The position numbers and the translations under genes are program-made. The notes beneath the pieces were generated by a model. The model saw nothing but the letters and a program-made list of their open reading frames with translations. It was not told where the DNA came from and made no database searches. DNA of 18,204 nucleotides from a virus (Duplodnaviria > Heunggongvirae > Uroviricota > Caudoviricetes): positions 1-18,204 of the IMG/VR virus record IMGVR_UViG_2737471864_000007; one strand, 5' to 3'. Position 1 is the stretch's first letter. Each line of letters opens with the position of its first letter. Positions 1 to 17,140 of the stretch are shown in pieces.

Positions 1-1446
1 ATGAAAATTGAAGCCGTTTTATTCGATTTAGATAACACGTTAGCATCAACAAGTAAGCTAAAAGATATTAGAGAGCGTGGGGCTTATGATGAAATAACAG
101 AAGAATTACTATCAACAGTTAAACCATATAAAGGTACCAAAGAATTACTAGAAAATCTGATTTCAAAAGGTATAAAAACAGGTGTCGTAACTAATTCAAG
201 TAAACGTTATGCAGAAAAAATAATTTCACATTTAAATTTACCAAATTTCGGTACTGTGGTGACATATACTGATGTAGGTTCATCAGGGATGAAACCAAAT
301 CCTACTGGTATTAATTTAGCATTAAAAAATCTAGGAATCTCAAATCCGGAACGGGTCATTTATATTGGGGACGATTATACAGATATTATTGCTAGTTATT
401 ATGCGGGGGTTATACCGATTGTTCCATCATGGGCATCAAGGACTCCTGTTTCTCAAGTGCCAGCCGCCGTATTAAGCACTGAGTTCCTTATAGATAATAT
501 TGATGAGTATGAGAATATAATTCTCATGGCGGAAAATTGTGCACGACACAATAGCTTTGAATTTGAGCGAAAAAGATTCTACTTTGTACCTTTGGATGAG
601 TCCGCTAATGTAATTCCTTCAAGTGAAACTCTATCTACAATATGTCTTGGACGTTATTTTTCGCAAAAAAGTTTACTTACAACAAAATTACACGATTCGC
701 ATCCATTATCTATTGAGATCGCCAAGAAAGAGTATGACGATAATTATGTGCCTCCAGAGTATTGGGGCGATATTTTAGCGCATGCGGCAGATAATATTCC
801 ATCTTTTTTCCGGGCTACTAAAGGTTTTGATATTGTTACAGTAATACCAGCTAAAAAAGGAAAAAAAGAAAGATTAGAGAGAGTCTTAGAAAATGCGCGA
901 AGTAAAAGCAATTCCAATGCTGCTTTTATAGCTGATCTTTTTGTTTTTAGTGAGGGAGCAAAATCACTTAAGACCTTACCAAAGGATCAGCGTTCGATAG
1001 AAATAGAATCTAGTTTGCATATGAATCCCAAATATAAAGGTACGCTTGAAGGTAAGACCGTATTAATATTTGATGATGTCATTACCACAGGCTCAACCTT
1101 AAAAAGAGCTTATTCATTGTTGAGAGACGAAAACGTTAAACATAGTTTAGGATTATGCTTGGCTAAAACAGTCTCTATATTTGAAGAGGATAGGCTTTGT
1201 CCTGAATGCATGTGTCACATTCTTAAAATAAAGACAAACTCTCTAACGGGTATTCGATTTTGGGGGTGTTCAGGATATAATGATGAATCAGATAAGTGTG
1301 ATTACACTGAAAGTATCGTTGAGAAACAATGCCCTAGCTGTGGTAGAGATATGGTTAAAAAGTATAATAAATGGAAGAGAGTTCGTTTTTTATCCTGTAC
1401 AGGATGGAATAAAGAACCTCGATGCAATTACACTGAGAGTGAGTGA
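1..1446 (+). CDS. shosT: Three-domain protein: N-terminal HAD-family phosphatase-like domain, central type I phosphoribosyltransferase (PRTase) domain, C-terminal tandem topoisomerase-type C4 zinc ribbons; candidate ShosT-like toxin/effector
   Basis: 481-aa ORF starting at window position 1. HAD motif I FDLDNTL at residues 8-14, with later TNS, KPNP and GDDYTD motifs. PRPP-binding loop VLIFDDVITTGSTL. Two C-terminal repeats (CPEC...IRFWGCSGY...CDYTE and CPSCG...VRFLSCTGW...CNYTE) resemble Topo I zinc ribbons. Visibly AT-rich versus the prophage backbone. Symbol is by analogy to the described PRTase + DprA-like ShosTA pair, not a verified match. Confidence 0.8.
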   Translation: MKIEAVLFDLDNTLASTSKLKDIRERGAYDEITEELLSTVKPYKGTKELLENLISKGIKTGVVTNSSKRYAEKIISHLNLPNFGTVVTYTDVGSSGMKPNPTGINLALKNLGISNPERVIYIGDDYTDIIASYYAGVIPIVPSWASRTPVSQVPAAVLSTEFLIDNIDEYENIILMAENCARHNSFEFERKRFYFVPLDESANVIPSSETLSTICLGRYFSQKSLLTTKLHDSHPLSIEIAKKEYDDNYVPPEYWGDILAHAADNIPSFFRATKGFDIVTVIPAKKGKKERLERVLENARSKSNSNAAFIADLFVFSEGAKSLKTLPKDQRSIEIESSLHMNPKYKGTLEGKTVLIFDDVITTGSTLKRAYSLLRDENVKHSLGLCLAKTVSIFEEDRLCPECMCHILKIKTNSLTGIRFWGCSGYNDESDKCDYTESIVEKQCPSCGRDMVKKYNKWKRVRFLSCTGWNKEPRCNYTESE

Positions 1447-2429
1447 TGTTGACAATATCTCCAGACACAGAAAAATTGTTAACACTTAGTGCCCTTAAAG
1501 GAGTGGGTACTAAGTCGTTATCTAGTTTAGGCATGCTCAAAGACTTTTCTAGTTTATCTCTTGAGGAGTTGGTGAGATTATTGGGGGTTAAGGAATTAGC
1601 TTCCGATGATTTTTTAGTGGCTAGAGATTTCGCAAGAAAGAATATTGATATAGCTCATGCTAAAAATCATTCTATAATTTCATTTTTTGATGAATGTTAC
1701 CCTGATACATTAAAGGTTACTAGCGATAGACCTGCAATACTTTATTGTGCTGGTAACATTGATTGTCTGCGTAATAAATGTTTGGCGGTAATTGGTACCC
1801 GTGAACCCACTCTACATGGTGAAACGATTGCAAAAAATATCACCAAGTGGTTCACCAAAAAAGGTTGGACCATTGTAAGTGGCTTGGCTAAAGGTGTTGA
1901 TTCAATTGCTCATACCTCCGCTATTGAAAACCAAGGTAAAACAATAGCAGTCATGGCTCAGGGGTTGGAAAAAATTTATCCCAGAGAGAATAAAAAACTC
2001 GCAATGGATATTATTAGTACAGGAGGAGTATTAATTTCGGAATATGCCTATGGAAGTCATACATTTCGTAATAACTTTGTAGAGCGTGATAGAATACAGG
2101 CAGGATTATCAGCTGGGGTTTTAATGGTTCAATCTGACTTAAAAGGTGGTAGTCTGCATGCATCTCGCTCAGCAGTAAATTATGGAAGATATCTTGTTAT
2201 TCCCAATCAGTCCAGAAGAGATATTCTTAATAGCGAGCCTAAAATACAGGCTAATCTTGCATTTATGAGTGGTGATTATTATTTAATTAGATCATTATTG
2301 AAAGTTAATGGAGATATAAGTAAATCTTTAATAATTATGGAAAGCAGTAACGATTACCTTAAGGTTGAAGAGCAATTGTACGATGCCCTTCATTCATTAC
2401 ATAATCAGTATAATGGTTTTGATTTTTAA
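1446..2429 (+). CDS. shosA: DprA/Smf-like Rossmann-fold DNA-binding protein; candidate ShosA-like antitoxin/partner
   Basis: ATG at 1446 overlaps the upstream stop by 1 nt (TGATG); the ORF track starts at an in-frame GTG at 1443. DprA-like core AVIGTREPT...IVSGLAKGVDSIAHTSAI...TIAVMAQGLEKIYPREN...ISEYAYG...F..RDRIQAGLS...VLMVQSDLKGGSLHASRSA...GR.LVIP. N-terminal region is helix-hairpin-helix-like. AT-rich. Confidence 0.8.
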   Translation: MLTISPDTEKLLTLSALKGVGTKSLSSLGMLKDFSSLSLEELVRLLGVKELASDDFLVARDFARKNIDIAHAKNHSIISFFDECYPDTLKVTSDRPAILYCAGNIDCLRNKCLAVIGTREPTLHGETIAKNITKWFTKKGWTIVSGLAKGVDSIAHTSAIENQGKTIAVMAQGLEKIYPRENKKLAMDIISTGGVLISEYAYGSHTFRNNFVERDRIQAGLSAGVLMVQSDLKGGSLHASRSAVNYGRYLVIPNQSRRDILNSEPKIQANLAFMSGDYYLIRSLLKVNGDISKSLIIMESSNDYLKVEEQLYDALHSLHNQYNGFDF

Positions 2430-2494
2430 GATAATTATATTGGGTTAGTTGTTAATGACACATTAATACTCCTTTTTCTTCGGTAGCCTCCTTT

Positions 2495-3622
2495 TTAGAA
2501 GGTTACCGTTATCCAATTTTTACCTCGATCATCTCGATATTTAGCTGTCTGGTTTAGAGACTTGTGGCCAAGCAATTTCTGAGTATCAATACCTTGACCT
2601 CCGTAGAGACGTTCGGACAAGGAACGTTGTTCGTGGAATGTCGCTGGAGTACCATCACCCCAATCAATTCCTGCTAAATCTCTCGCTTTACTAAAATTCA
2701 TCGTCAATGTATTGGCTGTAACCTGCGCGCCACGTTCAGCCTGTGAAGTAGTACGAAAAAAATGTACAAGGTATGGGCTGACTACATAGTCACGACAGCG
2801 GGCTACTACATCGCGCAAACTCCAGTTGATCGCATTGAGACGCAGGGAAAGCGGGATGGCGATTTTGCTACCGGTTTTTTCCTGGATGACATGGAGATGA
2901 TCATCCCAAATATCGCTAAATTTCATACGCGAGATATCACCTAACCTCTGGCCGGTAACCAGTGCTAACAGCATGGCATTCCCCATATAACGATGACTGG
3001 CATCTGCGATATCAAAGATTTTTTGCCATTCTTCAAGACTTAACCGTTGTCGGGTAATTTTTCTTCTGGGCTGTTTGGTCGCTAATGCTGGATTATAGCC
3101 TGGAGGGACTTCCCCGTAGTGTTGTGCCTCCTTGAATACATCAATTAGAACGGAGCGGACTACTTGCGCCATCCTCGGTTGCCCAGCAGTGATATACTCG
3201 TCAAGCAATTGTGCGATATCCCTTACATCAACGGATGAAATTAACTTCATTCCTGCTCGCTCCCTGAGCAAGGACACTGGTTTAGCTTTCTGTTTATAGG
3301 TGTTGAGCTTTATATCACCACTTTTCAGTCTGTCATCCTGGATTGCTTGATAGCGATCTAACCAGGTTGATGTTGTGATTGCTTTTCCTTTGCTGGTTGC
3401 GATCCTGTCACTGATAGCCAGAATCTGCCGGGTTCTTTGCTCAGCCAGGCGTGTATTGGCCTCAGTGGCAATAGCAATGGCTTCCGCTTCGTTTGTGCCC
3501 AAAGAATGGAACTTCCCGGTCACTGGATGCTTATATCGCCAATAGACTTTATTTACTTTTCTGCTATAAAGCGGATACAAGTTCGGGACTGAAACATTAT
3601 TTTTACGTGGTCTGGCTGCCAT
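2495..3622 (-). CDS. int: Tyrosine site-specific integrase, lambda Int family
   Basis: 375 aa. N-terminal arm-binding-like region and C-terminal catalytic region ending HEQRSLSERLYGGQGIDTQKLLGHKSLNQTAKYRDDRG, closely resembling the lambda Int C-terminus including the catalytic Tyr context. Overlaps xis at its 5' end as in lambda. Confidence 0.9.
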   Translation of the reverse strand: MAARPRKNNVSVPNLYPLYSRKVNKVYWRYKHPVTGKFHSLGTNEAEAIAIATEANTRLAEQRTRQILAISDRIATSKGKAITTSTWLDRYQAIQDDRLKSGDIKLNTYKQKAKPVSLLRERAGMKLISSVDVRDIAQLLDEYITAGQPRMAQVVRSVLIDVFKEAQHYGEVPPGYNPALATKQPRRKITRQRLSLEEWQKIFDIADASHRYMGNAMLLALVTGQRLGDISRMKFSDIWDDHLHVIQEKTGSKIAIPLSLRLNAINWSLRDVVARCRDYVVSPYLVHFFRTTSQAERGAQVTANTLTMNFSKARDLAGIDWGDGTPATFHEQRSLSERLYGGQGIDTQKLLGHKSLNQTAKYRDDRGKNWITVTF

Positions 3623-3848
3623 TACTTAAAATCCTCTGTAGAATAATGGAATCACTTTTCTTGATGACAGGAGTAACTAACTCCCCAACTAACTCTGCGT
3701 CCTCACGCACTCGCCATAGTCGACCTTGTTTCATTGCCGGTGGACAAAATAAATTCTGCTTAGCATAACGACGCAATGTGGACACACTTGGAGGATTACT
3801 CCTAAATTTTTCCGCAGCCCATTCCTCAAGTGTCAGCATTTGAAGCAT
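3603..3848 (-). CDS. xis: Excisionase (Xis, lambda-like)
   Basis: LTLEEWAAEKF...VSTLRRYAKQNLFCPPAMKQGRLWRV parallels lambda Xis (LTLQEWNARQ...TVRRWVRE..IFPPPVKDGREY). Start taken at the ATG at 3848 (GAGGT about 10 nt upstream); alternative in-frame starts at 3863 and 3839. Overlaps int start. Confidence 0.75.
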   Translation of the reverse strand: MLQMLTLEEWAAEKFRSNPPSVSTLRRYAKQNLFCPPAMKQGRLWRVREDAELVGELVTPVIKKSDSIILQRILSNGSQTT

Positions 3849-3903
3849 TTTTGATAACCTCATTTCTTTTGCTACACAACTATTTCACTAGTTAATTTCG
3901 CTG

Positions 3904-4440
3904 TCAGGATTGCTTATGTATCTTATGCAGCTCTTTAAAACGTTCCATAAACATCCCGTAGGCATGGCCCGGAGCCAGTGGAATAACTTTGAATATCTCT
4001 GTTGCCGGGATACCTTCCAGTACTGGCCAGAAAGAGCCATCATCAAGCCCGAGATCGCGGCGTTCGGTTGCCAACATGATGAGATCGGCATATTTCACAG
4101 GTGTACTCATAACCGGGGGTAACCCGTATTTCTCACGGATTACGGCGTCTATTTTTTCTTCCATCCGTTTATAGTCGGGAAGAAGGTGTTTCAGTGGTGC
4201 GGGGATGTCCTGACAATATGCTTCTGTTGCATCATGCATTAACGCTTCAAAAGCAAATTCCTGCGGTACCAGCTGGCTGCAAAGCACCGCATGTTGGGCG
4301 ACGCTGTAGAAGTGTGAAAGATGTCCTGCAAAGCGACAGATATTTGAAAGGGAAACCGCGATATCGTTAATAACGATGTCGTCTTTATTTATCTTGTCAT
4401 AATAAAAATGCTTCCCGGAAAAAGTTTTAATAAATGACAT
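3904..4440 (-). CDS. yfdR: HD-domain phosphohydrolase, YfdR-like (prophage CPS-53/KplE1 family)
   Basis: 178 aa from the ATG at 4440 (GGAGA 6 nt upstream); the track's longer form uses an upstream GTG. HD-type H..HD metal-binding context (ALMHDATEAY). Identity to E. coli K-12 YfdR is from recollection of sequence, size and gene order; needs BLASTP. Confidence 0.75.
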   Translation of the reverse strand: MSFIKTFSGKHFYYDKINKDDIVINDIAVSLSNICRFAGHLSHFYSVAQHAVLCSQLVPQEFAFEALMHDATEAYCQDIPAPLKHLLPDYKRMEEKIDAVIREKYGLPPVMSTPVKYADLIMLATERRDLGLDDGSFWPVLEGIPATEIFKVIPLAPGHAYGMFMERFKELHKIHKQS

Positions 4441-4567
4441 TTTGTTCTCCACGTATATGCGCTGCACCGCGCTGAATTTTGGTTAAAGAAAACCCTCGCC
4501 ATCAGGTGATTATTGAGTCAATTATGTTTCCATAAATGCCCCCGCAGGGGCATTTGCAGTAATGAAA

Positions 4568-5392
4568 TCAGGCGTTGAAAGTACCAATAAAGGTTTTTAC
4601 TTTGCTGTCTTTGAATTTTTCAACTAGCAGATCACGAAATTCGTTAGCCATTTCTTCCTGTACTGCTTCCAGCTGAATAATGCGCTGAACCAGTACAGGG
4701 CGATCACCAGTGATAATGCTGAGTCGTAATTTAAACGGACGTTCTTTCAGGCCTTCAAACGGAACGCATTTAAATTCAAATGCCACTGGCATAATGTCTT
4801 TGGTCTTCGCTTCGACAGACTCCATCAGGGAGCGTTTGCCGCTGAAGTCATTGTCTTCAAAATCAGCAGTCTGGTTCGCTTCAATTGTGATTTTACGGAT
4901 CGCTGCAGCCGCTTTGGTTGCCTGAATGGCGTCACCATTAGCATCAAAGCCCACAAGGTAGTCTGCCCAGTCTTCAATCCATTCTGCCAGTGACTTCTGG
5001 GAGTTACGTTCGCCGTTAACAGACAACAGAGCAGAGAACGGGGCTGTCTTTTTCAGTTTGAGAGTGGCGGTGTTATCTGCGTGACCTGGTTCATCAATAG
5101 TACCCAGGTTAAGTACACTGACGGCACGCATATTATCAGCATCGATAAAGCAGCCGGTGCCTTTATCTGCAAGATCTTTAGAATAACGGGTAAAGTCATC
5201 GATGTTGGCAGTGGAAAGCGCACCACGGAAACGGAAGCGATTTAAATTAAATTTTTCCAGATCATGAATGCGGAAATTCTCAGGCAATGCTACAGCATCG
5301 GCACCAATCTTATTGATAATTTCATTAACACCCTGAGCAGAAATAAGGGCATGGATTTGATTAATTGCGGTTGCGTCTAAGTTCTGAGACAT
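4568..5392 (-). CDS. yfdQ: YfdQ-like protein (DUF2303 family), function unknown
   Basis: 274 aa, ATG at 5392 with GAGGA 8 nt upstream. Size and position between yfdP-like and yfdR-like genes match the K-12 CPS-53 order as I recall it; needs BLASTP. Confidence 0.75.
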
Positions 5393-5457
5393 AATAAGTC
5401 CTCACTATATAAAGATATTCAGTGATGAGATAAATAATCAGTTTATTAATAACGATA

Positions 5458-5820
5458 TTAACGACCTGCTGCGCGGAGTTTTCCGTCAGGCTCACCGGCA
5501 AGAGTCAGTAATTGTCCCTGGTCTTCCTGCAGAATAGTCAGGCGACCACCGCGATTGACATACATCGGCGTTTCTGTGGTGTCTTCTTCGGAAATTTTCC
5601 CGCGGTTAGTCGGGCGAACATATGAGAGTTTGTGTTTGATTTTCACACGGTTCTCATCAAATGGTTCGATTTCCAGGTTGAGTGAGACCTTACCTTTGGT
5701 TTTCGTGTTCATCACACCGGAAGCGACTTCACTGAGAACTGCGCCGATTTTGGTTTCAAATACGCCGCCGTCCAGCTCCCCGATAAATGCCTGCACATCA
5801 GTACTGCGTTCGCTAGCCAT
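5458..5820 (-). CDS. yfdP: YfdP-like hypothetical protein
   Basis: 120 aa starting MASERSTDVQAFIGELDGG at the ATG at 5820, with AGGAG 8 nt upstream. The track's 226-aa form extends into the GC-rich ORF-free segment with an Arg/Cys/Pro-rich, non-protein-like translation, so the extension is rejected. Confidence 0.65.
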   Translation of the reverse strand: MASERSTDVQAFIGELDGGVFETKIGAVLSEVASGVMNTKTKGKVSLNLEIEPFDENRVKIKHKLSYVRPTNRGKISEEDTTETPMYVNRGGRLTILQEDQGQLLTLAGEPDGKLRAAGR

Positions 5821-5870
5821 TTTGCTGCTCCTCATCATATCGACCCTGCAAGGCCGATTAGTTTCTCCAC

Positions 5871-6074
5871 AAAACAGAGAAGAACACCTGCGGTGGCAGC
5901 CGCCCGGATGGATTGAGTTATGAGCCCGTCGTCCGGTGATGTTCTTCTCTGTTTTGTAAAAAGGACGGTACCAGCCGGAAGCAAGGGTACAAGCTGGTAC
6001 CGCCAGGACTACACACAGCATAAAGTTGTGGTGCCGGGTGCCTCCCGGTGCCTGGCGAAGGTTGCACACCAGGC
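5871..6074. other. GC-rich ORF-free segment with multiple perfect inverted repeats; candidate structured RNA or MITE-like element
   Basis: 16-bp perfect inverted repeat AAAACAGAGAAGAACA (5871-5886) / TGTTCTTCTCTGTTTT (5940-5955) around a 53-nt GC-rich spacer. 9-bp perfect stem GGTACCAGC (5967-5975) / GCTGGTACC (5993-6001). 6-bp stem GCCTGG (6050-6055) / CCAGGC (6069-6074). No convincing ORF in any frame. Confidence 0.3.
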
Positions 6075-6219
6075 GGGTGGGTATCCACAGAAGGTCGACT
6101 GTCAGCCTCAACCTTAACCCGCGTGCGCTGAGCCGCATTCACCACAACGCTAAGGATTCTCTCTGGTTGAAAATACTTAGCTGTTATGTGCCTGCTTTTA
6201 GCCACATCAGGCGAGGTGG

Positions 6220-6272
6220 ATCTGGTTATTCCCCAACAATAAGGATTCGGTTAATCTGGTTATCCCCAACAA
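6220..6272 (+). repeat. Two direct repeats ATCTGGTTAT(T)CCCCAACAA, 34 bp apart, just upstream of the ORF at 6289
   Basis: Copies at 6220-6239 and 6254-6272. The associated motif TAAGGATTC also occurs twice (6151-6159, 6240-6248), and CTGGTTGA at 6163-6170 is a partial third copy. Confidence 0.6.
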
Positions 6273-6288
6273 CGCAAAAGGAAAAGAA

Positions 6289-6723
6289 ATGTCCGGTAAT
6301 ATCTATACGCTGTACAAATCCCACTGTGAAAATGTTGGAAAGTATCGGGGCATTGAAATCAGTGGGGTAGTGTCATCAGTCGAAATAAGCAAAGTTGAAT
6401 CAAGAGCAACATTACTTACTCTTCTGGACCTTGTCTTACATGAGCACCGGAAGAAATTCGGCACTCCCTATAATCAGTTGAATGGGAAAAAGGCTCTGGT
6501 TCACCTTATTCTGATGAAGCATCACTGGATGCCAAAACAGATTAATGAGATGAAATTTGATGAACTTCTTCTTTCAATTCAGGATGAACTCACGCTTGAT
6601 AAAATAAGCGTAACCGCCCAGAAATTTTTAGATTATCGAGACTGGAGATCACAAATTCATCACTTTGATGATTTTGACGAAAATGAATGGGATCCTAATT
6701 TGTCTGCACAATATCTAAAGTAG
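6289..6723 (+). CDS. Hypothetical protein, 144 aa, acidic C-terminus; AT-rich gene oriented against the leftward early operon
   Basis: ATG at 6289 with AAGGA 7 nt upstream. Protein-like translation with no recognisable motif. 3' end overlaps the convergent small ORF 6695-6901 by 29 nt. Confidence 0.6.
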   Translation: MSGNIYTLYKSHCENVGKYRGIEISGVVSSVEISKVESRATLLTLLDLVLHEHRKKFGTPYNQLNGKKALVHLILMKHHWMPKQINEMKFDELLLSIQDELTLDKISVTAQKFLDYRDWRSQIHHFDDFDENEWDPNLSAQYLK

Positions 6724-6901
6724 CATCCTGTGATAAAACTGTGATTTCCTGATCCAGTTTTTTTAAGGAGCCTATTGTTTCCTGTCGATAAGACAGCACT
6801 TCACGAAGCTGGTTTATAGCTGCCAGCTTCTTTGTCATCCACTCGTAAATTTCCTCATCTGTGTAGCCAGGCGCGACGATTTTTGGTTCTGTTTTGTGCA
6901 T
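6695..6901 (-). CDS. Small hypothetical protein, 68 aa; first gene of the putative leftward (pL-like) operon
   Basis: ATG at 6901 preceded by a strong GAGGAGGTG Shine-Dalgarno 5-6 nt upstream; the track's longer form starts at a TTG. Helical-looking, not Arg-rich, so not an obvious N homolog. Confidence 0.55.
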   Translation of the reverse strand: MHKTEPKIVAPGYTDEEIYEWMTKKLAAINQLREVLSYRQETIGSLKKLDQEITVLSQDATLDIVQTN

Positions 6902-6947
6902 TTCACACCTCCTCAAGTTATCAGTTACTTGTTGATGGGGACCAGAT

Positions 6948-6959
6948 TGTTAAAGAGCT
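6948..6959 (-). promoter_or_regulatory. boxA-like element GCTCTTTAACAA; candidate antitermination (nut-like) site on the leftward transcript
   Basis: Minus-strand 12-mer matches the rrn/lambdoid boxA consensus TGCTCTTTAACAA at 12 of 13 positions. Lies between the OL-like block and the first leftward ORF. No convincing boxB hairpin identified. Confidence 0.4.
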
Positions 6960-6960
6960 A

Positions 6961-6984
6961 AGCGTCCTGTAGGGCGCTTTTTTG
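6961..6984 (+). terminator. Rho-independent terminator (plus strand)
   Basis: AGCGTCC-TGTA-GGGCGCT stem (7 bp, one G-U pair) followed by TTTTTT. The same hairpin on the minus strand has a C-A mismatch and no U-tract, so it is directional. Confidence 0.55.
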
Positions 6985-7058
6985 TTGCTAACGAATCATC
7001 CTGGACTTCATATGCCCCAGGCGGCTACTTCGTGGGCGTCCTGCCTGTTCGTTGTTTT

Positions 7059-7120
7059 AACACCTTTAAGTTGTAATTTAGTTGTGGCTTTGAATATTGT
7101 CAACAACTTTATGTGGTTTG
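7059..7120. promoter_or_regulatory. OL-like operator/promoter region
   Basis: Block AACACCTTTAAGTTGTAATTTAGTTGTGG (7059-7087) plus ACAACTTTATGT (7104-7115). Both recur in the cI-cro intergenic region; contains AAGTTGT/ACAACTT inverted half-sites. Confidence 0.5.
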
Positions 7121-7166
7121 AACGAGTAGCCAAGGAGTGCAAGGATTATCAAAAAAAGGAGGTTGT

Positions 7167-8057
7167 ATGGAAGACGCGCTTTACGCTTTTAATTACACAC
7201 AGAACCGGGACAAGTTATTTGCTAACTTGATTAGCATCATTGATGGAATCATTGCAGATGGAGTTGTCCGTGAAGAGGAGGTTCTTTACTTAGATACATG
7301 GTTACTTGAAGCAAAGCAGATTATCAATAATGGAGTTATAAAAAGTCTATCAGCACGGGTGTCGGATATTCTTGCGGATGGAATAATCACATCAGAAGAA
7401 CGTGATGACCTTAAAAATAGCCTTCTCCAAATACAGAGGGAAATTCTTGATATCCCTGAAATTGATTTTTACTCCAAGGATGTAGATGTCCATTTACTTA
7501 ATGGACTATGTAAAGGATTAATTGCTGATCGGAACTTAACTCAAGAAGAAATAAGATATCTTAATTGGTGGCTTGAGCAAAATGGAGCTTTGAAGAACAA
7601 CTACCCAGGAAAAAAACTTTATGCACTTGTAAAGGAAATTCTTAAAGATGGGGTTATTACTGAAGATGAGAGTTTAACTCTACATAAGGCATTAGTAGAC
7701 TTCACAGGATGTGACTTGGAAAGTGGGGTGGTGGATGGTTTGGCGACCAGGCTGCCTATTGATGTAGGGGCTTCGATAGAGTTAGAGGGTAAAACCTATT
7801 GTCTTACAGGCACTTTTGTTGCAGGAAAGAGAGCCGTAGTTGAAAATTTGATTAAAAATGCTGGTGGGAACATCAGTAGTGGAATTACTCAAAAGTTGGA
7901 TTTTTTAGTAATTGGGACGCTTTCCTCCCGTGATTGGAAATTCTCAAGTCACGGAAGGAAGATCGAAAAAGCTATATCTTATAGGGATGATAATGGTGCA
8001 AAACTTAAAATTATTTCTGAAGAAATGCTTTTCGATGCATTACCAAGTTCGCGATGA
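7167..8057 (+). CDS. TerB-like helical-repeat protein with C-terminal BRCT domain; AT-rich cargo gene between OL and cI
   Basis: ATG at 7167 with AGGAGG 4 nt upstream; the track's form starts at a GTG at 7137. Four repeats of the pattern (A/K)DG.I(T/R).EE...L (IADGVVREEEVLYL, LADGIITSEERDDL, IADRNLTQEEIRYL, LKDGVITEDESLTL). C-terminal GKTYCLTGTF...GGNISSGITQKLDFLVIG...GRKIEKA...GAKLKIISEEMLFDAL resembles the LigA-type BRCT fold. Convergent 18-nt overlap with the cI 3' end. Confidence 0.75.
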   Translation: MEDALYAFNYTQNRDKLFANLISIIDGIIADGVVREEEVLYLDTWLLEAKQIINNGVIKSLSARVSDILADGIITSEERDDLKNSLLQIQREILDIPEIDFYSKDVDVHLLNGLCKGLIADRNLTQEEIRYLNWWLEQNGALKNNYPGKKLYALVKEILKDGVITEDESLTLHKALVDFTGCDLESGVVDGLATRLPIDVGASIELEGKTYCLTGTFVAGKRAVVENLIKNAGGNISSGITQKLDFLVIGTLSSRDWKFSSHGRKIEKAISYRDDNGAKLKIISEEMLFDALPSSR

Positions 8058-8726
8058 CCAGAATACCCTACCTATAACATGAATTCTGGCTCGTCTATCT
8101 TCAAAGGTGAGTATTTCATCTGGGTACTCATCTTTGTTGAAGCTTCTAAGAATCAAGCCACCGTCAGGTAAGTTGATAAGTATTTTAACCCTTAGCAATA
8201 CACCATCTCGTACGGCATAAAGATCGCCATCACGAATAGGAACGGTTTGAGAAATATCAACGGCAACAAGATCTCCATTATTGAGAACCGGTAATAAACT
8301 GTTCCCCCATATTTTTACGATCTTGGCATTAGATGCACATACGCCAGATTTTCTCAAATCTGCTCTTCTTAACGGAAACCAGTCAATAGCTGATTCAACT
8401 ATTTCAGCCAGACATCCGTTACCTGCCGATAACTCGACATCTAAAACAGGAATGTTTACGAAAATATCGGGGTCTAATGCGGTGCTTTCTGCTTCTTTTA
8501 CAACAAGATCAGGTATGGATGCGTTATCTTCAATACCAAGTTGTAACCACTTTTGTGATACACCTAAAACTTTTGCAATTTCTTTAATTTTGCGCGGTTG
8601 TAGAGTTTCGCCATTCTCTATTTTGGCTACAGATTGTTGTGAAAGTCCAATTTTTTCAGCTAGTTGAGCTTGGCTCATGCCAGCTTTCTCTCTACCTATC
8701 TTTAATCGTTCTGCCAGTGTTTTCAC
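8040..8726 (-). CDS. cI: CI-like prophage repressor (XRE-type HTH + LexA/S24 peptidase-like autocleavage domain)
   Basis: 228 aa. N-terminal HTH (LAERLKIGREKAGMSQAQLAEKIGLSQQSVAKIENGE) and C-terminal S24-like region (GNSLLP...). GTG start at 8726 with a GAGAGGGA SD-like sequence. Divergent from cro. Confidence 0.85.
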   Translation of the reverse strand: MKTLAERLKIGREKAGMSQAQLAEKIGLSQQSVAKIENGETLQPRKIKEIAKVLGVSQKWLQLGIEDNASIPDLVVKEAESTALDPDIFVNIPVLDVELSAGNGCLAEIVESAIDWFPLRRADLRKSGVCASNAKIVKIWGNSLLPVLNNGDLVAVDISQTVPIRDGDLYAVRDGVLLRVKILINLPDGGLILRSFNKDEYPDEILTFEDRRARIHVIGRVFWSSRTW

Positions 8727-8755
8727 AACATATCCCTCTCTTTTTTGATGAGGTT

Positions 8756-8850
8756 ACAACTTTATGTTTTAGCTTTCCAACACCTAAAAGTTGTGATAAA
8801 AGTTGTTAATGTTGTATTCTTGCAACTCGTAACAACTTAACTACCAAAAA
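8756..8850. promoter_or_regulatory. OR-like operator/promoter region between cI and cro
   Basis: ACAACTTTATGT (8756-8767) and block AACACCTAAAAGTTGTGATAAAAGTTGT (8779-8806) match the OL-like region; a further ACAACTT at 8832-8838. Divergent cI and cro starts flank it. Confidence 0.55.
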
Positions 8851-8861
8851 AGGAGAAAGCT

Positions 8862-9110
8862 ATGACACCTGAGCAATTAGCCTTATCGGAGGCAATCGCT
8901 CTGGCTGGTGGTCAATCAGAATTGGCTCGGAAGCTCACAGCCAGCAGCGGTCATTTAGTAAAGCAACAACATGTCTGGAACTGGTTGAACAGAGAAAAGC
9001 GTCCCCCTGCAAAGCTCTCGATATTCATTGAAAAGACCACTGGCATATCAAAAGAAAAATTACGTCCAGATATTTTTCAAAAGATTAAAGATTCATCAGC
9101 TGAAAAGTAA
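8862..9110 (+). CDS. cro: Cro-like HTH regulator (YdaS/Cro family)
   Basis: 82 aa, ATG at 8862 with AAGGAG upstream. HTH-like GGQSELARKLTASSGHLVKQQ. Position immediately right of OR and divergent from cI. Confidence 0.75.
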   Translation: MTPEQLALSEAIALAGGQSELARKLTASSGHLVKQQHVWNWLNREKRPPAKLSIFIEKTTGISKEKLRPDIFQKIKDSSAEK

Positions 9111-9132
9111 CCACAGTTTTAAGGAGATAGCC

Positions 9133-9690
9133 GTGGGTAAGCATCACTGGAAAATAGAAAAACAGCCTGAGTGGTACGTGAAAGCTGTCAGAAAAACTAT
9201 CGCGGCGTTGCCGGGTGGTTACGCTGAAGCCGCTGACTGGCTGGATGTAACAGAGAACGCTTTATTCAACCGCCTTCGTGCAGATGGCGATCAGATTTTT
9301 CCGCTGGGATGGGCAATGGTTTTACAGCGTGCTGGTGGCACTCACTTCATTGCTGATGCTGTGGCGCAGTCTGCAAATGGCGTATTTGTGTCTCTTCCTG
9401 ACGTCGAGGATGTGGACAACGCCGATATTAACCAGCGTCTGCTGGAAGTCATTGAACAGATCGGCAGTTATTCAAAACAGATTCGTTCAGCAATCGAAGA
9501 CGGTGTAGTGGAACCGCATGAGAAGACAGCAATTAACGACGAGCTGTATCTCTCAATTTCGAAGCTGCAGGAGCATGCAGCACTGGTCTACAAAATCTTT
9601 TGCATTTCAGAAAGTAATGACGCCCGCGAGTGTGCAGCTCCGGGCGTCGTGGCGTCGATTGCTTCTGGTTGTGGAGAAACTAACGCATGA
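9133..9690 (+). CDS. CII-like regulatory protein (YdaT-like family)
   Basis: 185 aa from the GTG at 9133 (AAGGAG 6 nt upstream). The track's longer form starts inside cro and is rejected. Position after cro matches the Rac-type racR/ydaS/ydaT arrangement as I recall it; family assignment tentative. Confidence 0.6.
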
Positions 9691-10025
9691 ACAGTTTAAC
9701 AACACACTACCGTCGCTCGCAACTGATTGCGCTTCCTGTACCGGGTGGAAAAGCGAAGGTGGAATATTGCTATGCAGTGAATGTACCAGGTGACAGGGAA
9801 ATTGTAACCCACAGCTTTGCAGAGTGGGCTGTGGGTGATTTCAACCGGCAGAAGGAGACAGTCCTTTGCGACAAGTTAACCGCTGGTTCAAAGATCACTA
9901 CGGAGTGCCCGTCAGAGTCATTCGTTGGGAGCCGGAAACACAACGGGTTATCTACCTCCGCGAAGGTTATGAGCATGAATGCTTCAGTCCGCTCGAACAG
10001 TTTCGTCGTAAATTCAGGGAAATAG
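9687..10025 (+). CDS. Hypothetical protein; possibly frameshifted or overlapped by an alternative-frame ORF (9866-10045)
   Basis: ATG overlaps the cII-like stop (ATGA). The C-terminal third of the translation looks non-protein-like, while a second frame (TTG at 9866 after AGGAG, stop at 10043-10045) reads ...[58 protein letters not shown]. Confidence 0.35.
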
Positions 10026-10034
10026 AGGTCGGTC

Positions 10035-10304
10035 ATGAGCACTAAATTAACCGGCTATGTATGGGATGGTTGCGCTGTATCAGGCATGAAGTTATCCAGT
10101 GTGGCAATTATGGCCCGCCTGGCTGATTTCAGTAATGACGAAGGTGTGTGCTGGCCATCAATTGAAACCATTGCCCGTCAGATTGGCGCGGGGATGAGTA
10201 CCGTCAGAACGGCTACCGTGGCATTTGAAGAGAAGTATGGCTCCCAGCTGGAGCTGATATTTCGTTTTATCGATCGTGCGCTGGCAATAGGCGTACTGGC
10301 GTAA
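10035..10304 (+). CDS. Short HTH protein resembling the N-terminal domain of phage/plasmid replication initiators (HTH_36-like); probable remnant of the replication module
   Basis: 89 aa. KLSSVAIMARLADFSNDEGVCWPSIETIARQIGAGMSTVRTA matches the typical pattern of this winged-helix class (...ALADHANDDG.CWPS.ETLA...G.S.RTV.RA). Ends directly before the Q-like gene. Confidence 0.55.
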   Translation: MSTKLTGYVWDGCAVSGMKLSSVAIMARLADFSNDEGVCWPSIETIARQIGAGMSTVRTATVAFEEKYGSQLELIFRFIDRALAIGVLA

Positions 10305-10317
10305 GTGGAGACGCAAA

Positions 10318-10896
10318 ATGATTAATCCTTCCGAAGTTGGTAAATCCGGGGAAATGGCACGACTACGTACACTGGAAAGTGTATGGATACAGGGCAAACT
10401 GCGTATGTGGGGGCGCTGGTCATTCATCGGCGGCGGCTCAGGCGGCAATATGTTTAACCAGTTGCTGGCCTCCGGGAAAATCACCAAGACAGCCATCAAT
10501 GACGCTTTACGTCGCATGAAGAAGTCAGGCCTGACAAAACCAGAGCTCGAAGCGTTCTTTCGTGAAATTATCGATGGCAAAAATAAGACAGGCATTTCGT
10601 TCTGCTCAGATGATGAGGGTGTATGCATTGATGGCGTTATCGCGGCTGTGCTGATCTCAAATGGTCATAACGGATTGTTTGATGTGCTACTGGACAGATA
10701 CCGCTATCGCAAGAGCAAACGTCTCATGGCAGAGCAACTTCAAAAGCGCCATCCAGAATGGTGCTACATGACCTGCCGCCGCCGAATTGATTCCTGGCTA
10801 AGTTTGGCAGAATTCATGCTTTACGCACCAATGTGTGATGCATTCGGCACAAATAGCAGCAGATTTAAGTTGCAATGTGAGCCAGGAGGTGCTTAA
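10318..10896 (+). CDS. Putative late-gene antiterminator (Q-like) with Cys pairs
   Basis: 192 aa. Position immediately upstream of a terminator and the lysis cassette. Two Cys pairs (CSDDEGVC, CYMTC) are compatible with a zinc-binding Q-type protein. Assigned by position and architecture, not by recognised homology. Confidence 0.5.
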   Translation: MINPSEVGKSGEMARLRTLESVWIQGKLRMWGRWSFIGGGSGGNMFNQLLASGKITKTAINDALRRMKKSGLTKPELEAFFREIIDGKNKTGISFCSDDEGVCIDGVIAAVLISNGHNGLFDVLLDRYRYRKSKRLMAEQLQKRHPEWCYMTCRRRIDSWLSLAEFMLYAPMCDAFGTNSSRFKLQCEPGGA

Positions 10897-10946
10897 ATTG
10901 TGTTACGCTCGGGACGCAAAAGCGAACAGAGCAACAAACATTAAGA

Positions 10947-10970
10947 ACCCGCCAGCGTGCGGGTTTTTTG
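10947..10970 (+). terminator. Rho-independent terminator downstream of the Q-like gene (tR'-like)
   Basis: ACCCGC-CAGCGT-GCGGGT stem followed by TTTTTT. Confidence 0.6.
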
Positions 10971-11009
10971 TTATCATTACCTTTTAAACTTCTAATGGAA
11001 GGTAATGAT

Positions 11010-11582
11010 ATGTGGTTAGGGATTCCTTTTATCTATGTTCAGGAACGGCTGGCAGACACAATTAGCATCAGTAAAATACCATCTATTTCTATAGAATCTT
11101 CATTCTCCTCCGAAACGATTATAGCCGCATTTATTAGTGGATTGGTTCCAGCACTGATATCTTTGTATGTGATTAGACAAAATAACGAGTCTGTCCGATA
11201 TCAACAAAAGCAAGAGAATAAAAGACATTATTCTGCGCATTTAAGGGTGGTAGTTAGCGAGTATGCATACCAACTTAATAAAGTTAAAGAGATACATGCC
11301 GAATGGGTTTCTGTTAGCACAACAATGATCCAATATAAGCTAACAAGCTTAGAAGAAAAAATGTCTGAGGCTCTATTAGAACTGGAAAGATTTAAAGTTA
11401 GCTTGTTAATTTCTATTCCTGATGATGAAGATGGTGCATTGTTTAAGAAATCAATAAATACCATCTCAGAAAAGCTATCTTCATTAATTAAGGGGAGGCA
11501 TATATCAATGGTTGATGGAATGGGATGGGCTGGCCTTTATATGTCATTCATTTCAGATGCTAATAAGTATCTAAATAAATAA
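11010..11582 (+). CDS. AT-rich moron: membrane-anchored helical protein, function unknown
   Basis: ATG at 11010 with GGAAGG about 7 nt upstream; alternative in-frame ATG at 10995; the track's form uses a TTG at 10968 inside the terminator. One predicted TM helix (IIAAFISGLVPALISLYVI) followed by a charged helical region. Flanked by terminators on both sides. Confidence 0.6.
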   Translation: MWLGIPFIYVQERLADTISISKIPSISIESSFSSETIIAAFISGLVPALISLYVIRQNNESVRYQQKQENKRHYSAHLRVVVSEYAYQLNKVKEIHAEWVSVSTTMIQYKLTSLEEKMSEALLELERFKVSLLISIPDDEDGALFKKSINTISEKLSSLIKGRHISMVDGMGWAGLYMSFISDANKYLNK

Positions 11583-11604
11583 AATATATTTTATTAAAAT
11601 ATCA

Positions 11605-11633
11605 AAAGCCACTTAATTGTGGCTTTTTGTTTT
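11605..11633 (+). terminator. Rho-independent terminator downstream of the moron
   Basis: AGCCAC-TTAATT-GTGGCT stem followed by TTTTT G TTTT. Confidence 0.6.
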
Positions 11634-11674
11634 CCCTCTTTTTGAGAGGACTCACAGCAATAAGAGGGGGCTAA

Positions 11675-12070
11675 ATGTCCGATCCTGTTTCTGGCACTAC
11701 GGTTGCCGCTGGTGGCCTTATGGGAGCCAGTGTTTTTGGTATCGCAACTGGTATTGATTATGGCGTGGTGTTTGGCGCTTTCGCAGGAGCTGTGTTCTAC
11801 GTAGCGACAGCAGCAAACATCAGTAGGATGAAGTTGGTTGGCTATTTCGTGACATCGTTTATTGTCGGCGTTCTTGGCGCTGGGCTTGTTGGTTCGTACC
11901 TTGCCAAATGGACAGGCTACAGCGACAGGCCACTTGATGCTCTCGGCGCAGTGGCAGTAGCTGCGTTGGCCATCAAACTTCTTACCTTCATCAACAGTCA
12001 GGATCTAGGAAGCCTGTTCAGTATGCTTTCGCGATTGCGTGGAGGAGGGACCAGCAATGGTAACAAGTGA
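11675..12070 (+). CDS. Putative holin (multi-TM small membrane protein)
   Basis: 131 aa, Gly/Ala-rich hydrophobic segments consistent with 3-4 TM helices. AAGAGGGGG SD upstream. First gene of the lysis cassette. Confidence 0.65.
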   Translation: MSDPVSGTTVAAGGLMGASVFGIATGIDYGVVFGAFAGAVFYVATAANISRMKLVGYFVTSFIVGVLGAGLVGSYLAKWTGYSDRPLDALGAVAVAALAIKLLTFINSQDLGSLFSMLSRLRGGGTSNGNK

Positions 12071-12338
12071 TCCTTCAGCGATGATCAATGCGGGTATTTG
12101 CGCGGTCATTGTAATTGCTCTGATGTTTTACCAACGTGGCGGTGCCAGACATCGCCCGATAGTTTCTCTTCTCGCTTATTTCACGGTGCTGGTTTATGCC
12201 AGCATCCCGTTCCGCTATCTGTTCGGCCTCTACCAGGAATCACACTGGCTGGTGGTCATCGTTAACATCCTGATATGCGCCGCCGTGCTATGGGCTCGGG
12301 GAAACGTGGCGCGTCTTATTGATGCTCTGAGGCACTAA
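12057..12338 (+). CDS. Second lysis-cassette membrane protein (holin/antiholin-like)
   Basis: About 93 aa from the ATG at 12057 (GGAGGAGGGA SD 6 nt upstream); the track's form starts at a GTG at 12039. Three hydrophobic segments. Overlaps the holin stop and the endolysin start. Confidence 0.55.
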   Translation: MVTSDPSAMINAGICAVIVIALMFYQRGGARHRPIVSLLAYFTVLVYASIPFRYLFGLYQESHWLVVIVNILICAAVLWARGNVARLIDALRH

Positions 12339-12952
12339 TGAACCAATCACAATTTCAACAGGCGGCTGTTATTAGCGCCGGGTTAGCTGCGCGCTGGTTT
12401 CCGCACATTGATGCGGCGATGAAGGAATTCGGCATTACAGCACCAGCGGATCAGGCAATGTTTATCGCTCAGGTAGGCCATGAGTCGATGGGGTTTAGCG
12501 CCGTAGTTGAAAATTTTAACTACACACCATCTGCGCTGGTGGCGACGTTCGGAAAGAGGATCACACAGCAGCAGGCTGATGCCCTTGGCAGAACATCCGG
12601 ACATGCAGCTCGTCAGGATGCTATTGCCAATCTGGTGTATAGCAACCGACTGGGTAACAAAGCACCCGGTGATGGCTGGAAATATCGTGGTAGAGGATTA
12701 ATTCAAATCACTGGCCTCCATAATTATCGCATCTGTGGCGCGGAGCTGAAGTTAGATCTGGTGACTTCACCTGAACAACTTGAACAGGAACTACAGGCCG
12801 CGCGCTCAGCTGCATGGTTCTACACCTCTAAAGGCTGCATGATCTACGGTGCCGATATTAATCGTGTTACGCGTATCATTAACGGCGGTCTGAACGGTAT
12901 TGAGGATCGTAAAGTCCGATACAACAAGGCGCGGGCGGCGCTGCTGGTATGA
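12338..12952 (+). CDS. Endolysin, glycoside hydrolase family 19 (chitinase-like lysozyme)
   Basis: 204 aa. GH19-type motifs FIAQVGHESMGF...NF.Y...YRGRGLIQITGLHNY. Start overlaps the upstream stop (TAATG). Confidence 0.8.
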   Translation: MNQSQFQQAAVISAGLAARWFPHIDAAMKEFGITAPADQAMFIAQVGHESMGFSAVVENFNYTPSALVATFGKRITQQQADALGRTSGHAARQDAIANLVYSNRLGNKAPGDGWKYRGRGLIQITGLHNYRICGAELKLDLVTSPEQLEQELQAARSAAWFYTSKGCMIYGADINRVTRIINGGLNGIEDRKVRYNKARAALLV

Positions 12953-13341
12953 AGATGAGTTATTGGGCGCTCATTTTAACGTTTATTGCTTGTGTTGCTG
13001 GTGGTCTTGTCTGGTCAGCGAATCACTATCATGGAAAGTTTCTGGAGGAGCAGAAGCGTGCTGACGCTGCGGAACAGCGAGCTGATTCTACTGAAGCTAT
13101 CACCGCGAATGTCCTGCGAACTATGGCAATAACGAACATCATTCAGGAGGCGAATCAACATGCAAAACAGCAGATCGCACTGGAGTCACAGAGAACCCAG
13201 GAAGATATCAAAGTGGCTATTGCGAATGATGATTGCGCTTCACGTCCTGTGCCTGCTACCGCTGCTGACCGGTTGCGGAAGTACGCGGACAGTTTACGTG
13301 AGCGATCCGGTGGCACCCCTGCCAGCCAGCCTGACTTCTGA
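12949..13341 (+). CDS. Rz-like inner-membrane spanin (i-spanin)
   Basis: 130 aa. N-terminal TM (WALILTFIACVAGGLVW) followed by a charged coiled-coil-like region. Start overlaps the endolysin stop (ATGA). Confidence 0.7.
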   Translation: MKMSYWALILTFIACVAGGLVWSANHYHGKFLEEQKRADAAEQRADSTEAITANVLRTMAITNIIQEANQHAKQQIALESQRTQEDIKVAIANDDCASRPVPATAADRLRKYADSLRERSGGTPASQPDF

Positions 13342-13498
13342 TACTCCAGTACCGTTTATACCCAATCCGCTGACGTATGGTACCAGTCTGGAGTTGAATG
13401 TTGCTCTATTGTCAGCCTTGGGACAATGTAATTTTGATAAAACTGGAATCAGAAATATTGAATCACGGCGCGCTATTTTGCATTCGAAAGACAAATAG
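13226..13498 (+). CDS. Rz1-like outer-membrane lipoprotein spanin (o-spanin), overlapping the 3' part of the Rz-like gene in another frame
   Basis: Lipobox LLTGC after a short signal peptide (MMIALHVLCLLPLLTGC). Pro-rich mature region. Starts inside the Rz-like gene and extends past its stop. Exact start (13226 or 13229) uncertain. Confidence 0.6.
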   Translation: MMIALHVLCLLPLLTGCGSTRTVYVSDPVAPLPASLTSDTPVPFIPNPLTYGTSLELNVALLSALGQCNFDKTGIRNIESRRAILHSKDK

Positions 13499-13866
13499 CT
13501 CGAGTTATATTTTTCATTATCGTTGCGAATGCTCCTAATAAAGCTGTGTATTATGGTAATTTTATAAAGCCTATGGGTTTAAGTTCAGATGCTAGCGTTT
13601 TTATAGCGTAATGTAGCAGCTTACATAAAATATGCATCGTGATTAACTATTAGGCCAACCTTTTGGACCAATATGAAAGTGGAAGTTTATACAAATCGTT
13701 TGTCGATGATTAAACATGTGTCTAGTAGCGCTAGTCATGAACAGGTTTATTACGTATCATTTTGTGTAGATTATCGAGAGTACAACTAGTAGAGCAGCTA
13801 ATCTTTAGATAGTGCCAGTGATGTTCACTTGCGATAAACTAACCTTTTCATTCAGTGGAGGTTATT

Positions 13867-14301
13867 ATGTGGCATACATTACTTAACTGGCCTTGGGGAA
13901 CTGTGTGGTCAGCTGTATCGGCTTTAGGTTCAATTGTAACTGTTACATTAGGTTTTTGGGCAATGAATGTTTGGCGGCGACAGGAGGCTCTGAAGGCCAA
14001 AATGGCTCTGAAAATGGCAGTGGCTGATTATTCAAATGCATTATCACAACTACCTTTATCTCTTAGTCGTAATGTTCGTATTGAAAAAAGGGCCGAGCTA
14101 CGAGAGTTAAATCATAAATTAAATGCTGTTAATAATGCTTTTTTGATATGCGAACATATGTTGGAAAAATACCCACGTGTAAACAGCGGTTGTCGTTCTT
14201 TATCTGTTGCCCACAAAGAATATATTAGAATGAGAGATAATAGTATTCAGGCGAAACATATTTGTCATAATATTCTTTCAGAGCAGTTTGTATTCAAATG
14301 A
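13867..14301 (+). CDS. AT-rich moron: membrane-anchored helical protein, function unknown
   Basis: About 144 aa from the ATG at 13867 (GGAGG 6 nt upstream). N-terminal TM (WSAVSALGSIVTVTLGFWAMNVW) then a helical, Lys/Arg-rich region. Preceded by about 360 bp of AT-rich non-coding DNA. Confidence 0.55.
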   Translation: MWHTLLNWPWGTVWSAVSALGSIVTVTLGFWAMNVWRRQEALKAKMALKMAVADYSNALSQLPLSLSRNVRIEKRAELRELNHKLNAVNNAFLICEHMLEKYPRVNSGCRSLSVAHKEYIRMRDNSIQAKHICHNILSEQFVFK

Positions 14302-17129: not shown

Positions 17130-17140
17130 CTGAGGTAATT

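Follow-up and report, generated by a model that had tools for sequence, protein, structure and literature searches.

A putative boxA element back to back with an opposite-strand terminator beside convergent cargo genes in the early-left region of lambdoid prophages

BoxA and the Nus factors were long viewed as serving only ribosomal RNA (rRNA) synthesis and N-dependent phages, with suhB and CRISPR arrays as recent additions. On the long untranslated RNAs of the rRNA operons and the CRISPR arrays, boxA alone recruits Nus factors and blocks Rho (PMC7665894, PMC6614797), and GYTCTTTAANA has been described as the functional gamma-proteobacterial consensus of the NusB/NusE boxA (Baniulyte et al., 2017, PMC5725501). 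The lambdoid phages SfIV, SfII and SfV are reported to be without N, cII and cIII (PMC3851460). Here we analyzed a boxA-like 12-mer in a stretch of 18,204 nucleotides (nt) from the virus record IMGVR_UViG_2737471864_000007 (Caudoviricetes; positions 1 to 18,204, hereafter called the window). It represents a lambdoid prophage related in type to SfIV, SfV and e14 and contains an integrase, an excisionase and early-left genes similar to yfdR, yfdQ and yfdP. Past its predicted PL-like promoter, a hairpin and the 12-mer together form a conserved module of about 45 base pairs (bp), present in prophages of E. coli, Shigella, Klebsiella and Buttiauxella and unannotated in the records examined, in which no feature is entered at this place. 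Beyond the module lies a gene transcribed toward it, here called the cargo (6289-6723, plus strand). With moderate confidence, we regard it as most likely that rrn-type, N-independent Nus loading at this boxA shields PL transcription while the polymerase crosses the antisense side of the cargo.

The 12-mer, GCTCTTTAACAA, was found as an exact match at 6947-6958 on the minus strand, and therefore in the leftward (PL-sense) transcript. It is the sole exact copy in the window, while about 0.002 copies are expected by chance over the 36,408 strand positions. All 12 bases are identical to positions 2-13 of the rrnB boxA, and GCTCTTTAACA (6948-6958, minus strand) matches the gamma-proteobacterial consensus. 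In the PL transcript the boxA-containing RNA reads UUAGCUCUUUAACAAUCUGG, in its longer form AAGCGCCCUACAGGACGCUUAGCUCUUUAACAAUCUGG; boxA is located about 110 nt into the predicted transcript and 45 nt ahead of the ATG (6901) of a small open reading frame (ORF). An earlier reading of the window from its letters alone (the sequence-only reading) had given the sequence and the strand of the 12-mer correctly, with coordinates one base off (6948-6959). It had also located the element between an OL-like block and the first leftward ORF, in agreement with the predicted promoter and its operator-like motif at 7103-7075 and the ATG at 6901. The consensus was matched twice in the window (0.12 matches expected), by the module boxA and by a second perfect match, GCTCTTTAAAA, at 3930-3940 (plus strand), on the antisense strand of the yfdR-like gene near its 3' end. 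This second match is probably due to chance, as two matches were obtained in 3 of 200 shuffles. The module boxA was not among the entries in the examined part of the Wade-lab boxA list, which holds sites at most 50 bp from a start codon.

Conservation was followed in two collection scans with complementary anchors, either the 12-mer (TAGCTCTTTAACAA) or the hairpin (AAAGCGCCC-loop-GGACGCTTAG). Anchored on the 12-mer, about 45 of 120 viral contigs belonged to the family, and their stem GCGCCC...GGACGC was nearly invariant though unforced by the pattern. Anchored on the hairpin, 45 of 48 viral matches carried CTCTTTAA-N-AA directly after ...GGACGCTTAG, and the boxA variants of these copies were limited to GCTCTTTAA(C/A/T/G)AA. 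The same scan of a one-genome-per-species collection gave 15 matches, including five prophage members of the family, all with a boxA-like sequence; the other 10 were rejected as chance terminators. Across 37 distinct copies from the search that did not depend on boxA, position 10 of the 12-mer was the only one to vary (C in 30 copies, A in five, T and G in one each), positions 9, 11 and 12 being invariant; positions 2-8 had defined family membership and so give no independent test of conservation. Right after position 12 the information content drops. The only variable position of the 12-mer is thus the N of the consensus, which is our main reason for accepting it as a real boxA and not a chance resemblance. 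Judged by its sequence, the 12-mer behaves like a true boxA of the leftward RNA, and this part of the sequence-only reading is supported.

The hairpin and the 12-mer are conserved together, and the module that they form is widespread. An 86-nt query across it matched 1041 of 5426 complete E. coli genomes. Similarity to other phages by BLAST was piecewise, in separate blocks: a block of about 68 bp (7057-6990) is common to SfV, SfII, ST64B, mEp460, mEp237 and phages of Yersinia, Pantoea, Pectobacterium, Citrobacter and Klebsiella, and the 42 bp at 6985-6944, comprising hairpin and 12-mer, occur independently in Klebsiella phages. The loop of the hairpin exists in 16 variants, and the module has therefore had time to diverge. 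As a separate observation, several unrelated phage contigs (L055/L088, L082, L076, L040 and L066) showed a strong promoter-like sequence with TAGCTCTTTAACAA about 10-20 nt later, in some cases shortly before tRNA genes. Phage operons that produce untranslated RNA may thus often contain a stand-alone boxA.

On the plus strand the module contains an intrinsic terminator for rightward, cargo-sense transcription (6960-6985), composed of a stem-loop at 6960-6979 and a T-run. The hairpin, AAGCGTCC-TGTA-GGGCGCTT, has eight pairs, five of them G-C and one G.U, and six T come next (TTTTTTGTT). The predicted fold of the plus-sense RNA amounts to -11.5 kcal/mol, compared to -7.5 kcal/mol for the minus-sense RNA, in which the G.U pair turns into a C.A mismatch and the U-run is interrupted (tail UUAGCUCUUU). 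The terminator scan called nothing on the minus strand at the module. A directional plus-strand terminator had been proposed in the sequence-only reading, and the strong plus fold with its six T, the weaker minus fold and the lack of a call on the minus strand all agree with it. The same holds for its proposal that the hairpin stops transcripts of the ORF starting at 6289: the convergent ORF ends just past the module in 31 of 31 distinct contexts, which makes the hairpin the terminator of that gene. In the window, 236 nt separate the cargo stop codon (6723) from the hairpin. The C.A mismatch of the minus-sense RNA is kept in nearly all module copies, in spite of the variable loop. This retained asymmetry of the stem between the strands suggests selection for strong rightward and weak leftward termination. 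A scan of the window for a plus-strand promoter from which a short antisense RNA could run up to the hairpin gave none.

While the module is constant, its surroundings are not. It is preceded by at least three different types of PL leader: the leader RNA of the SfV type, to which a second small hairpin (AAACGTTCCGCTGGCCAGCG) is added in some cases; an arrangement in Klebsiella consisting of only the small hairpin AAACGTTCCGCTGGCCAGCG, with no leader RNA; and an unrelated leader of about 200 nt, found in L178 at 7215-7430 after a cI-like gene and a promoter. As three leaders occur upstream, the constant partner of the module is the PL position together with the convergent gene, and not any single leader. 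On the other side, the sequence turns mosaic a few bases past the 12-mer. The nearest substantial ORF is nevertheless convergent in all 31 distinct downstream contexts, ending 3-224 nt from the module, and the proteins encoded belong to at least five unrelated families. The use of one terminator sequence by at least five unrelated cargo families indicates that the terminator belongs to the slot rather than to the cargo.

Two observations on these leaders are added here. The third leader, that of L178, contains the hairpin CCUCG-GAAGAGA-CGAGG, and its cargo is a membrane protein of 163 amino acids (aa) with the stop codon 4 nt from boxA and no inverted repeat. The small hairpin, AAACGTTCCGC(T/C)(G/A)GCC(A/T/G)GCG, is located between leader RNA and module in L004 (2972-2996) and also in L008, L010, L054, L149 and L173. 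It occurs in mEp237/SPN3UB-like and in Klebsiella prophages and shows a compensatory change (CGCCA-GCC-TGGCG versus CGCT-GGCC-AGCG).

Related prophages lacking the module were informative as well. The sequence-only reading had named absence of the 12-mer from homologous prophages among the observations that would speak against it. For some relatives this objection applies, as the 12-mer is missing in SfV, e14, ST64B, YeP1, mEp237 and SPN3UB, which keep the leader. The absence is nonrandom, however: these are exactly the phages whose first gene is read in the PL direction, and the 12-mer is missing where convergent cargo is missing. In SfV, YeP1, mEp237, SPN3UB and the E. coli K-12 element e14, which have the leader RNA and no module, the first gene is codirectional with PL.

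The cargo is also bracketed by an inverted repeat, which starts inside the boxA. Its left arm (IR-L), AATCTGGTCCCCATCAACAAG, is located at 6929-6949 on the minus strand and begins at boxA position 11; on the right side (6215-6272, plus strand), just ahead of the cargo start codon, there are two direct copies at 6215-6233 and 6249-6272 (GTTAATCTGGTTATCCCCAACAA). In the window, the arms 6929-6948 and 6253-6272 are 75% complementary, and no other long-range duplex scored better than theirs (-25.3 kcal/mol, z -4.7). In general, an inverted copy of AATCTGGATATCC... (from boxA position 11) is found 520-800 nt away, before the cargo start, and in many cases another copy follows after a further 34 nt. 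All contexts that have the SfV-type leader contain the repeat, and so does the Klebsiella Kp4882-1 type, which is without that leader (L004). Its arms covary, as AATCTGGATATCCC, AATCTGGATGACT, AATCTGGATACCCC and AATCAGTTTGGTGA are each accompanied by a matching partner, and in every such context the RNA pairing was the best partner within 1.2 kb (-19 to -31 kcal/mol, z -4.3 to -8.6). These values come from an ungapped inverted-repeat search with a sliding-window control; whole-segment folding with mononucleotide shuffles was discarded as noisy. In the third leader context hairpin and boxA are kept, and no inverted repeat was found.

The stability of the repeat differs little between the strands. 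The PL-sense duplex was more stable in 11 contexts and the cargo-sense duplex in five, with a mean difference of -1.4 kcal/mol, and the G.U versus C.A asymmetry favored neither strand's RNA clearly. The repeat may form a helix in the PL RNA, pair the 5' with the 3' untranslated region (UTR) of the cargo mRNA, or mark a cassette end at the DNA level. Most contexts also have the conserved block GTTAATCTGGATATCCCCAACAAC beyond the cargo gene, on the side away from the module. Upstream of the right arm, a conserved block of about 85 nt (GCCTGCTTTTAGCCACATCAGGCGAGGTGGATCCTGGTTATTCCCCAACAACAAGGATTCGG; 6190-6250, plus strand, in the window) was observed in L004, L009, L045, L051 and others with differing cargo, and part of it also in e14, which has no cassette. 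This block could hold the cargo promoter; the scan gave no consensus promoter there.

In our working model, lambdoid prophages without N have a conserved cassette boundary in their early-left operon, and the module would be one end of it, with two signals placed back to back on opposite strands. On the plus strand, the terminator would halt transcription of the horizontally acquired convergent cargo before it enters PL/OL and the immunity region. PL transcripts would meet only a weak hairpin, with its C.A mismatch and broken U-run, and 3 nt past the GC core of this hairpin the PL RNA would present a consensus boxA. NusB-NusE(S10) would bind there, and an rrn-type complex with NusA, NusG and SuhB could form on RNA polymerase in the absence of N or boxB. 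The polymerase modified in this way would cross the 450-800 nt in which the RNA is antisense to the cargo and untranslated, making it an ideal substrate for Rho, and continue into the yfdP/Q/R-like genes, xis and int. What the sequences show directly is the element itself, its pattern of conservation, its asymmetry between the strands and its strict link to convergent cargo; both the Nus binding and the anti-Rho role of boxA we infer from its known counterparts. In the PL operon of the window no strong minus-strand intrinsic terminator was found. The RNA antisense to the cargo has a stretch with more C than G at 6418-6289, a profile that only hints at a Rho loading site.

Several points weigh against this model. 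In e14 the PL transcript crosses the convergent gene ymfI in the absence of boxA; boxA is therefore not essential for crossing a convergent gene, and would be helpful rather than indispensable. The untranslated stretch is shortened in the window, where boxA is succeeded by a small ORF that is translated. BoxA would be partly redundant if the leader RNA were a put-like processive antiterminator, and put of HK022 also suppresses Rho-dependent termination (PMC9378689). The module copies are related by descent, so that conservation counts do not represent independent events. Finally, the 12-mer also belongs to the 3' UTR of the cargo transcript and adjoins a DNA inverted repeat, so that the selected feature could be the opposite strand or the DNA itself.

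Linked to this last point is an unlikely alternative, in which the match to boxA would be incidental and the 12-mer would be kept for the 3' UTR or terminator context of the cargo (UUGUUAAAGAGC), or as a DNA junction, that is, a recombination boundary for cargo swaps. It would account for the constant position of the 12-mer between the stop codon and the terminator of the cargo (with the stop 2-4 nt away in the third leader context), for the mosaic sequence past the module, as expected of a recombination junction, and for the inverted repeat that begins inside the 12-mer. However, it needs an accidental match in 12 of 12 positions to the rrn boxA (positions 2-13), in PL sense, past an early promoter and varying only at N, and no known terminator or 3' UTR element has the sequence of the 12-mer. 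Homogenization by recombination also does not fit 16 loop variants, and the third context retains hairpin and boxA where the inverted repeat is lacking.

It is quite improbable that the module functions as a weak bidirectional terminator or attenuator ("tL0"), the boxA-like stretch serving as an imperfect U-tract (UUAGCUCUUU) that filters PL transcripts lacking modification by the leader RNA. The PL-sense hairpin does still fold (-7.5 kcal/mol) with six U in the next 10 nt, and HK022 likewise has a hairpin with T-runs shortly past putL. Yet a U-tract has no need of the invariant GCUCUUUAA-N-AA, the C.A mismatch kept in nearly all copies suggests selection against leftward termination, and the scan called no minus-strand terminator.

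An even smaller probability, which we regard as very low, was given to a negative, suhB-like boxA, at which a Nus complex 45 nt before the ATG of the small ORF would repress translation and promote Rho termination, so that the early-left operon stays silent. Repression through boxA has been documented in the case of suhB (PMC5725501), and in the window boxA lies less than 50 nt from the start codon. On the PL transcript boxA (CUCUUUAA, 6947-6958) is complementary to the Shine-Dalgarno region of the small ORF (UUGAGGAG, 6908-6915). But the predicted pairing was no better than that of shuffled controls, and most module contexts have no PL-codirectional ORF after boxA.

Least credible of all is a lambda-type nut site with a boxB-like hairpin and an unrecognized N-like protein: boxA lies downstream of a PL-like promoter and a hairpin adjoins it, but this hairpin is 5' and not 3' of boxA, is hypervariable in its loop and is tuned for the opposite strand, and the reading is contradicted on three of four defining features. 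No boxB was found 3' of boxA, where 44-66 nt folded no better than shuffles (z +0.6 and +0.7) and the sequence differs completely between module copies. An arginine-rich antiterminator of the N family was not detected among the early-left ORFs by Pfam or PHROGs, nor were the remaining small-ORF translations N-like, in line with the reported lack of N in the SfIV/SfII/SfV group (PMC3851460). Nor was there a nutR-like partner, as no boxA with two or fewer mismatches occurs past cro in 8860-9700. The nut-like site suggested by the sequence-only reading is thus not supported, as boxB, N and a rightward partner are missing, while its reservation that the mechanism may differ from lambda is right. 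That reading had mentioned neither the structured leader RNA immediately upstream nor the inverted repeat.

The signals and genes around the module are those of a lambdoid immunity region. The predicted PL-like promoter, TTGACA-17-TAAATT (7075-7103, minus strand), is sigma-70-like with 10 of 12 matches and overlaps an operator-like motif. This motif, AAGTTGTNA, is found at 7068, and the cI/cro intergenic region has four copies of it (8754-8838); the window contains six matches in all, compared to 0.76 expected. An S24-type repressor gene is located at 8040-8726 (minus strand) and a cro-like gene at 8862-9110 (plus strand). The order repressor gene, promoter, leader and module was also observed in L004, L005-L010 and L178, the promoter being predicted. 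Between PL/OL and the repressor gene, a BRCT-domain gene (phrog_3989; 7168-8057, plus strand) converges on cI, and the 3' ends of the two genes overlap by 18 bp. Of the E. coli genomes that share the neighboring region, only about a dozen have this gene, which is a second cargo or a defence-like insertion at the immunity region.

The cargo gene of the window encodes a protein of 144 aa (ECs1072 family, phrog_5286). It is the counterpart of SfIV orf36, which has been reported from no other Shigella serotype-converting phage than SfIV and is listed as unique to it (PMC3851460). The GC content of the cargo region is 0.36-0.43, compared to 0.49-0.55 in the adjacent genes, and no function was assigned to the cargo proteins by Pfam and PHROGs. 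Between module and cargo lies the first leftward ORF (phrog_1744, 68 aa; 6695-6901, minus strand), whose 3' end overlaps that of the cargo gene by 29 bp (6695-6723). A homologous small ORF in the same position and arrangement is found in L102, next to a different cargo.

The start of the predicted PL transcript is formed by a structured leader RNA of 78 nt (6985-7062, minus strand) of the SfV/e14/ST64B type. It is common to SfV, SfII, SfIV, e14, ST64B, mEp237, mEp460 and SPN3UB and to phages of Yersinia, Pantoea, Pectobacterium, Klebsiella and Buttiauxella. An RNAalifold analysis of 24 distinct members predicted 13 pairs, eight of which show compensatory double changes, and the closing helix occurs in variants (AACGAA/UUCGUU, GUCAUC/GAUGAC, CCACC/GGUGG) around the invariant core AGGCAGGACGCCCACGAAGUAGCC. 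The covariance model built from the 24 members (R1) scored the leader of the window at 95 bits. Searches against Rfam, of the whole window at gathering thresholds and of 6800-7200 at permissive E-values, returned only terminator-driven noise. With R1, no second copy was found after cro in the window or in the SfV, ST64B and PhiR29_1 loci.

The closest described counterpart of this leader, as distinct from the 12-mer, is the put RNA of HK022. In both cases an N-less lambdoid phage has a structured RNA of about 70-78 nt right after PL. Put, however, has two stems, while the window leader consists of a closing helix and one hairpin around the invariant core, and after putL HK022 has no consensus boxA (best match with three mismatches). 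The two share only short motifs recognized by eye (CGAAC.G, GGATGA). Homology to put was considered on the basis of these motifs and dropped, because R1 did not detect putL or putR of HK022 and HK75 (for HK022 none at E-values up to 10 with filters off) and because CGAAC is one version of the variable closing helix. Put-like RNAs were reportedly surveyed by King et al. in 2011 (J Bacteriol). An ST64B-like phage has been suggested, speculatively, to use put (PMC12315714). The place of the leader directly behind PL in N-less lambdoid phages makes a put-like label tempting, but we treat it as a distinct RNA family, with a function probably related to antitermination.

If the proposed Nus loading is true, the consensus boxA of N-less prophages would be a further widespread Nus target, carried by about one-fifth of complete E. 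coli genomes, and the first boxA target tied to one particular problem, namely that of a phage operon tolerating oppositely oriented cargo. The module would act as a two-way insulator, blocking cargo transcription toward the immunity region and presumably passing that of the phage. It would then bear on how prophages gain and swap genes expressed in lysogeny, candidates for defence or exclusion, without breaking early expression.

Compared with described systems, the module resembles the nutL sites of lambda, P22 and phage 21 in its position, just past PL and before the first early-left gene, and in having a boxA. In nutL, however, boxA and boxB are read by N, whereas the module has no boxB 3' of boxA, no N and no nutR. 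Its boxA is also of the full rrn-consensus type, unlike the weaker boxA of lambda (CGCUCUUA).

The closest likeness is to the rrn leader, in which a boxB hairpin, boxA and the 5' strand of the 16S RNase III stem follow each other in the same order and spacing as hairpin, boxA and repeat arm in the module, neither of them needing N. Of the rrnB boxA, UGCUCUUUAACAA, positions 2-13 (GCUCUUUAACAA) are identical to the module core; the first base is A in the module and U in rrn. In E. coli K-12 rrnB the hairpin ends 3 nt before boxA, as in the module, and the RNase III stem starts at the last nt of boxA and pairs 5 nt past the 16S end, while the module arm starts at boxA position 11. There are clear differences: the rrnB duplex reaches -57.9 kcal/mol and the module helix is far weaker (-19 to -31 kcal/mol); rrn brackets rRNA, and the module brackets RNA antisense to a coding cargo of 0.5-0.8 kb; its hairpin doubles as a terminator of the opposite strand; and a GU-rich boxC is absent. 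A further-reaching and doubtful proposal, by analogy, is that the module is a miniature copy of the rRNA leader, in which boxA would tether the PL RNA until the arms pair 0.5-0.8 kb later and loop out the antisense-cargo RNA, possibly for excision by RNase III. PL would then be shielded from Rho and the cargo mRNA from antisense RNA, and the 78-nt leader would represent a second, undescribed class of phage antiterminator RNA. The parallel with the rrn leader thereby offers a directly testable model of how the Nus complex might loop RNA in a setting other than ribosome biogenesis.

The suhB 5' UTR and the Salmonella CRISPR leaders (PMC5725501, PMC7665894) share with the module a stand-alone GYTCTTTAANA past a promoter and before a Rho-sensitive RNA. 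The module differs from them in being located in a prophage early operon, fused to a terminator of the reverse strand and tied to a convergent cargo. Finally, its slot is similar to moron cassettes, a concept already applied to another region of SfIV (PMC3851460), in that low-GC, independently transcribed cargo with a strong intrinsic terminator sits inside a phage operon. In contrast to morons, at least five unrelated cargo families here use one terminator, which is fused to a boxA on the opposite strand and accompanied by a covarying inverted repeat around the cargo.

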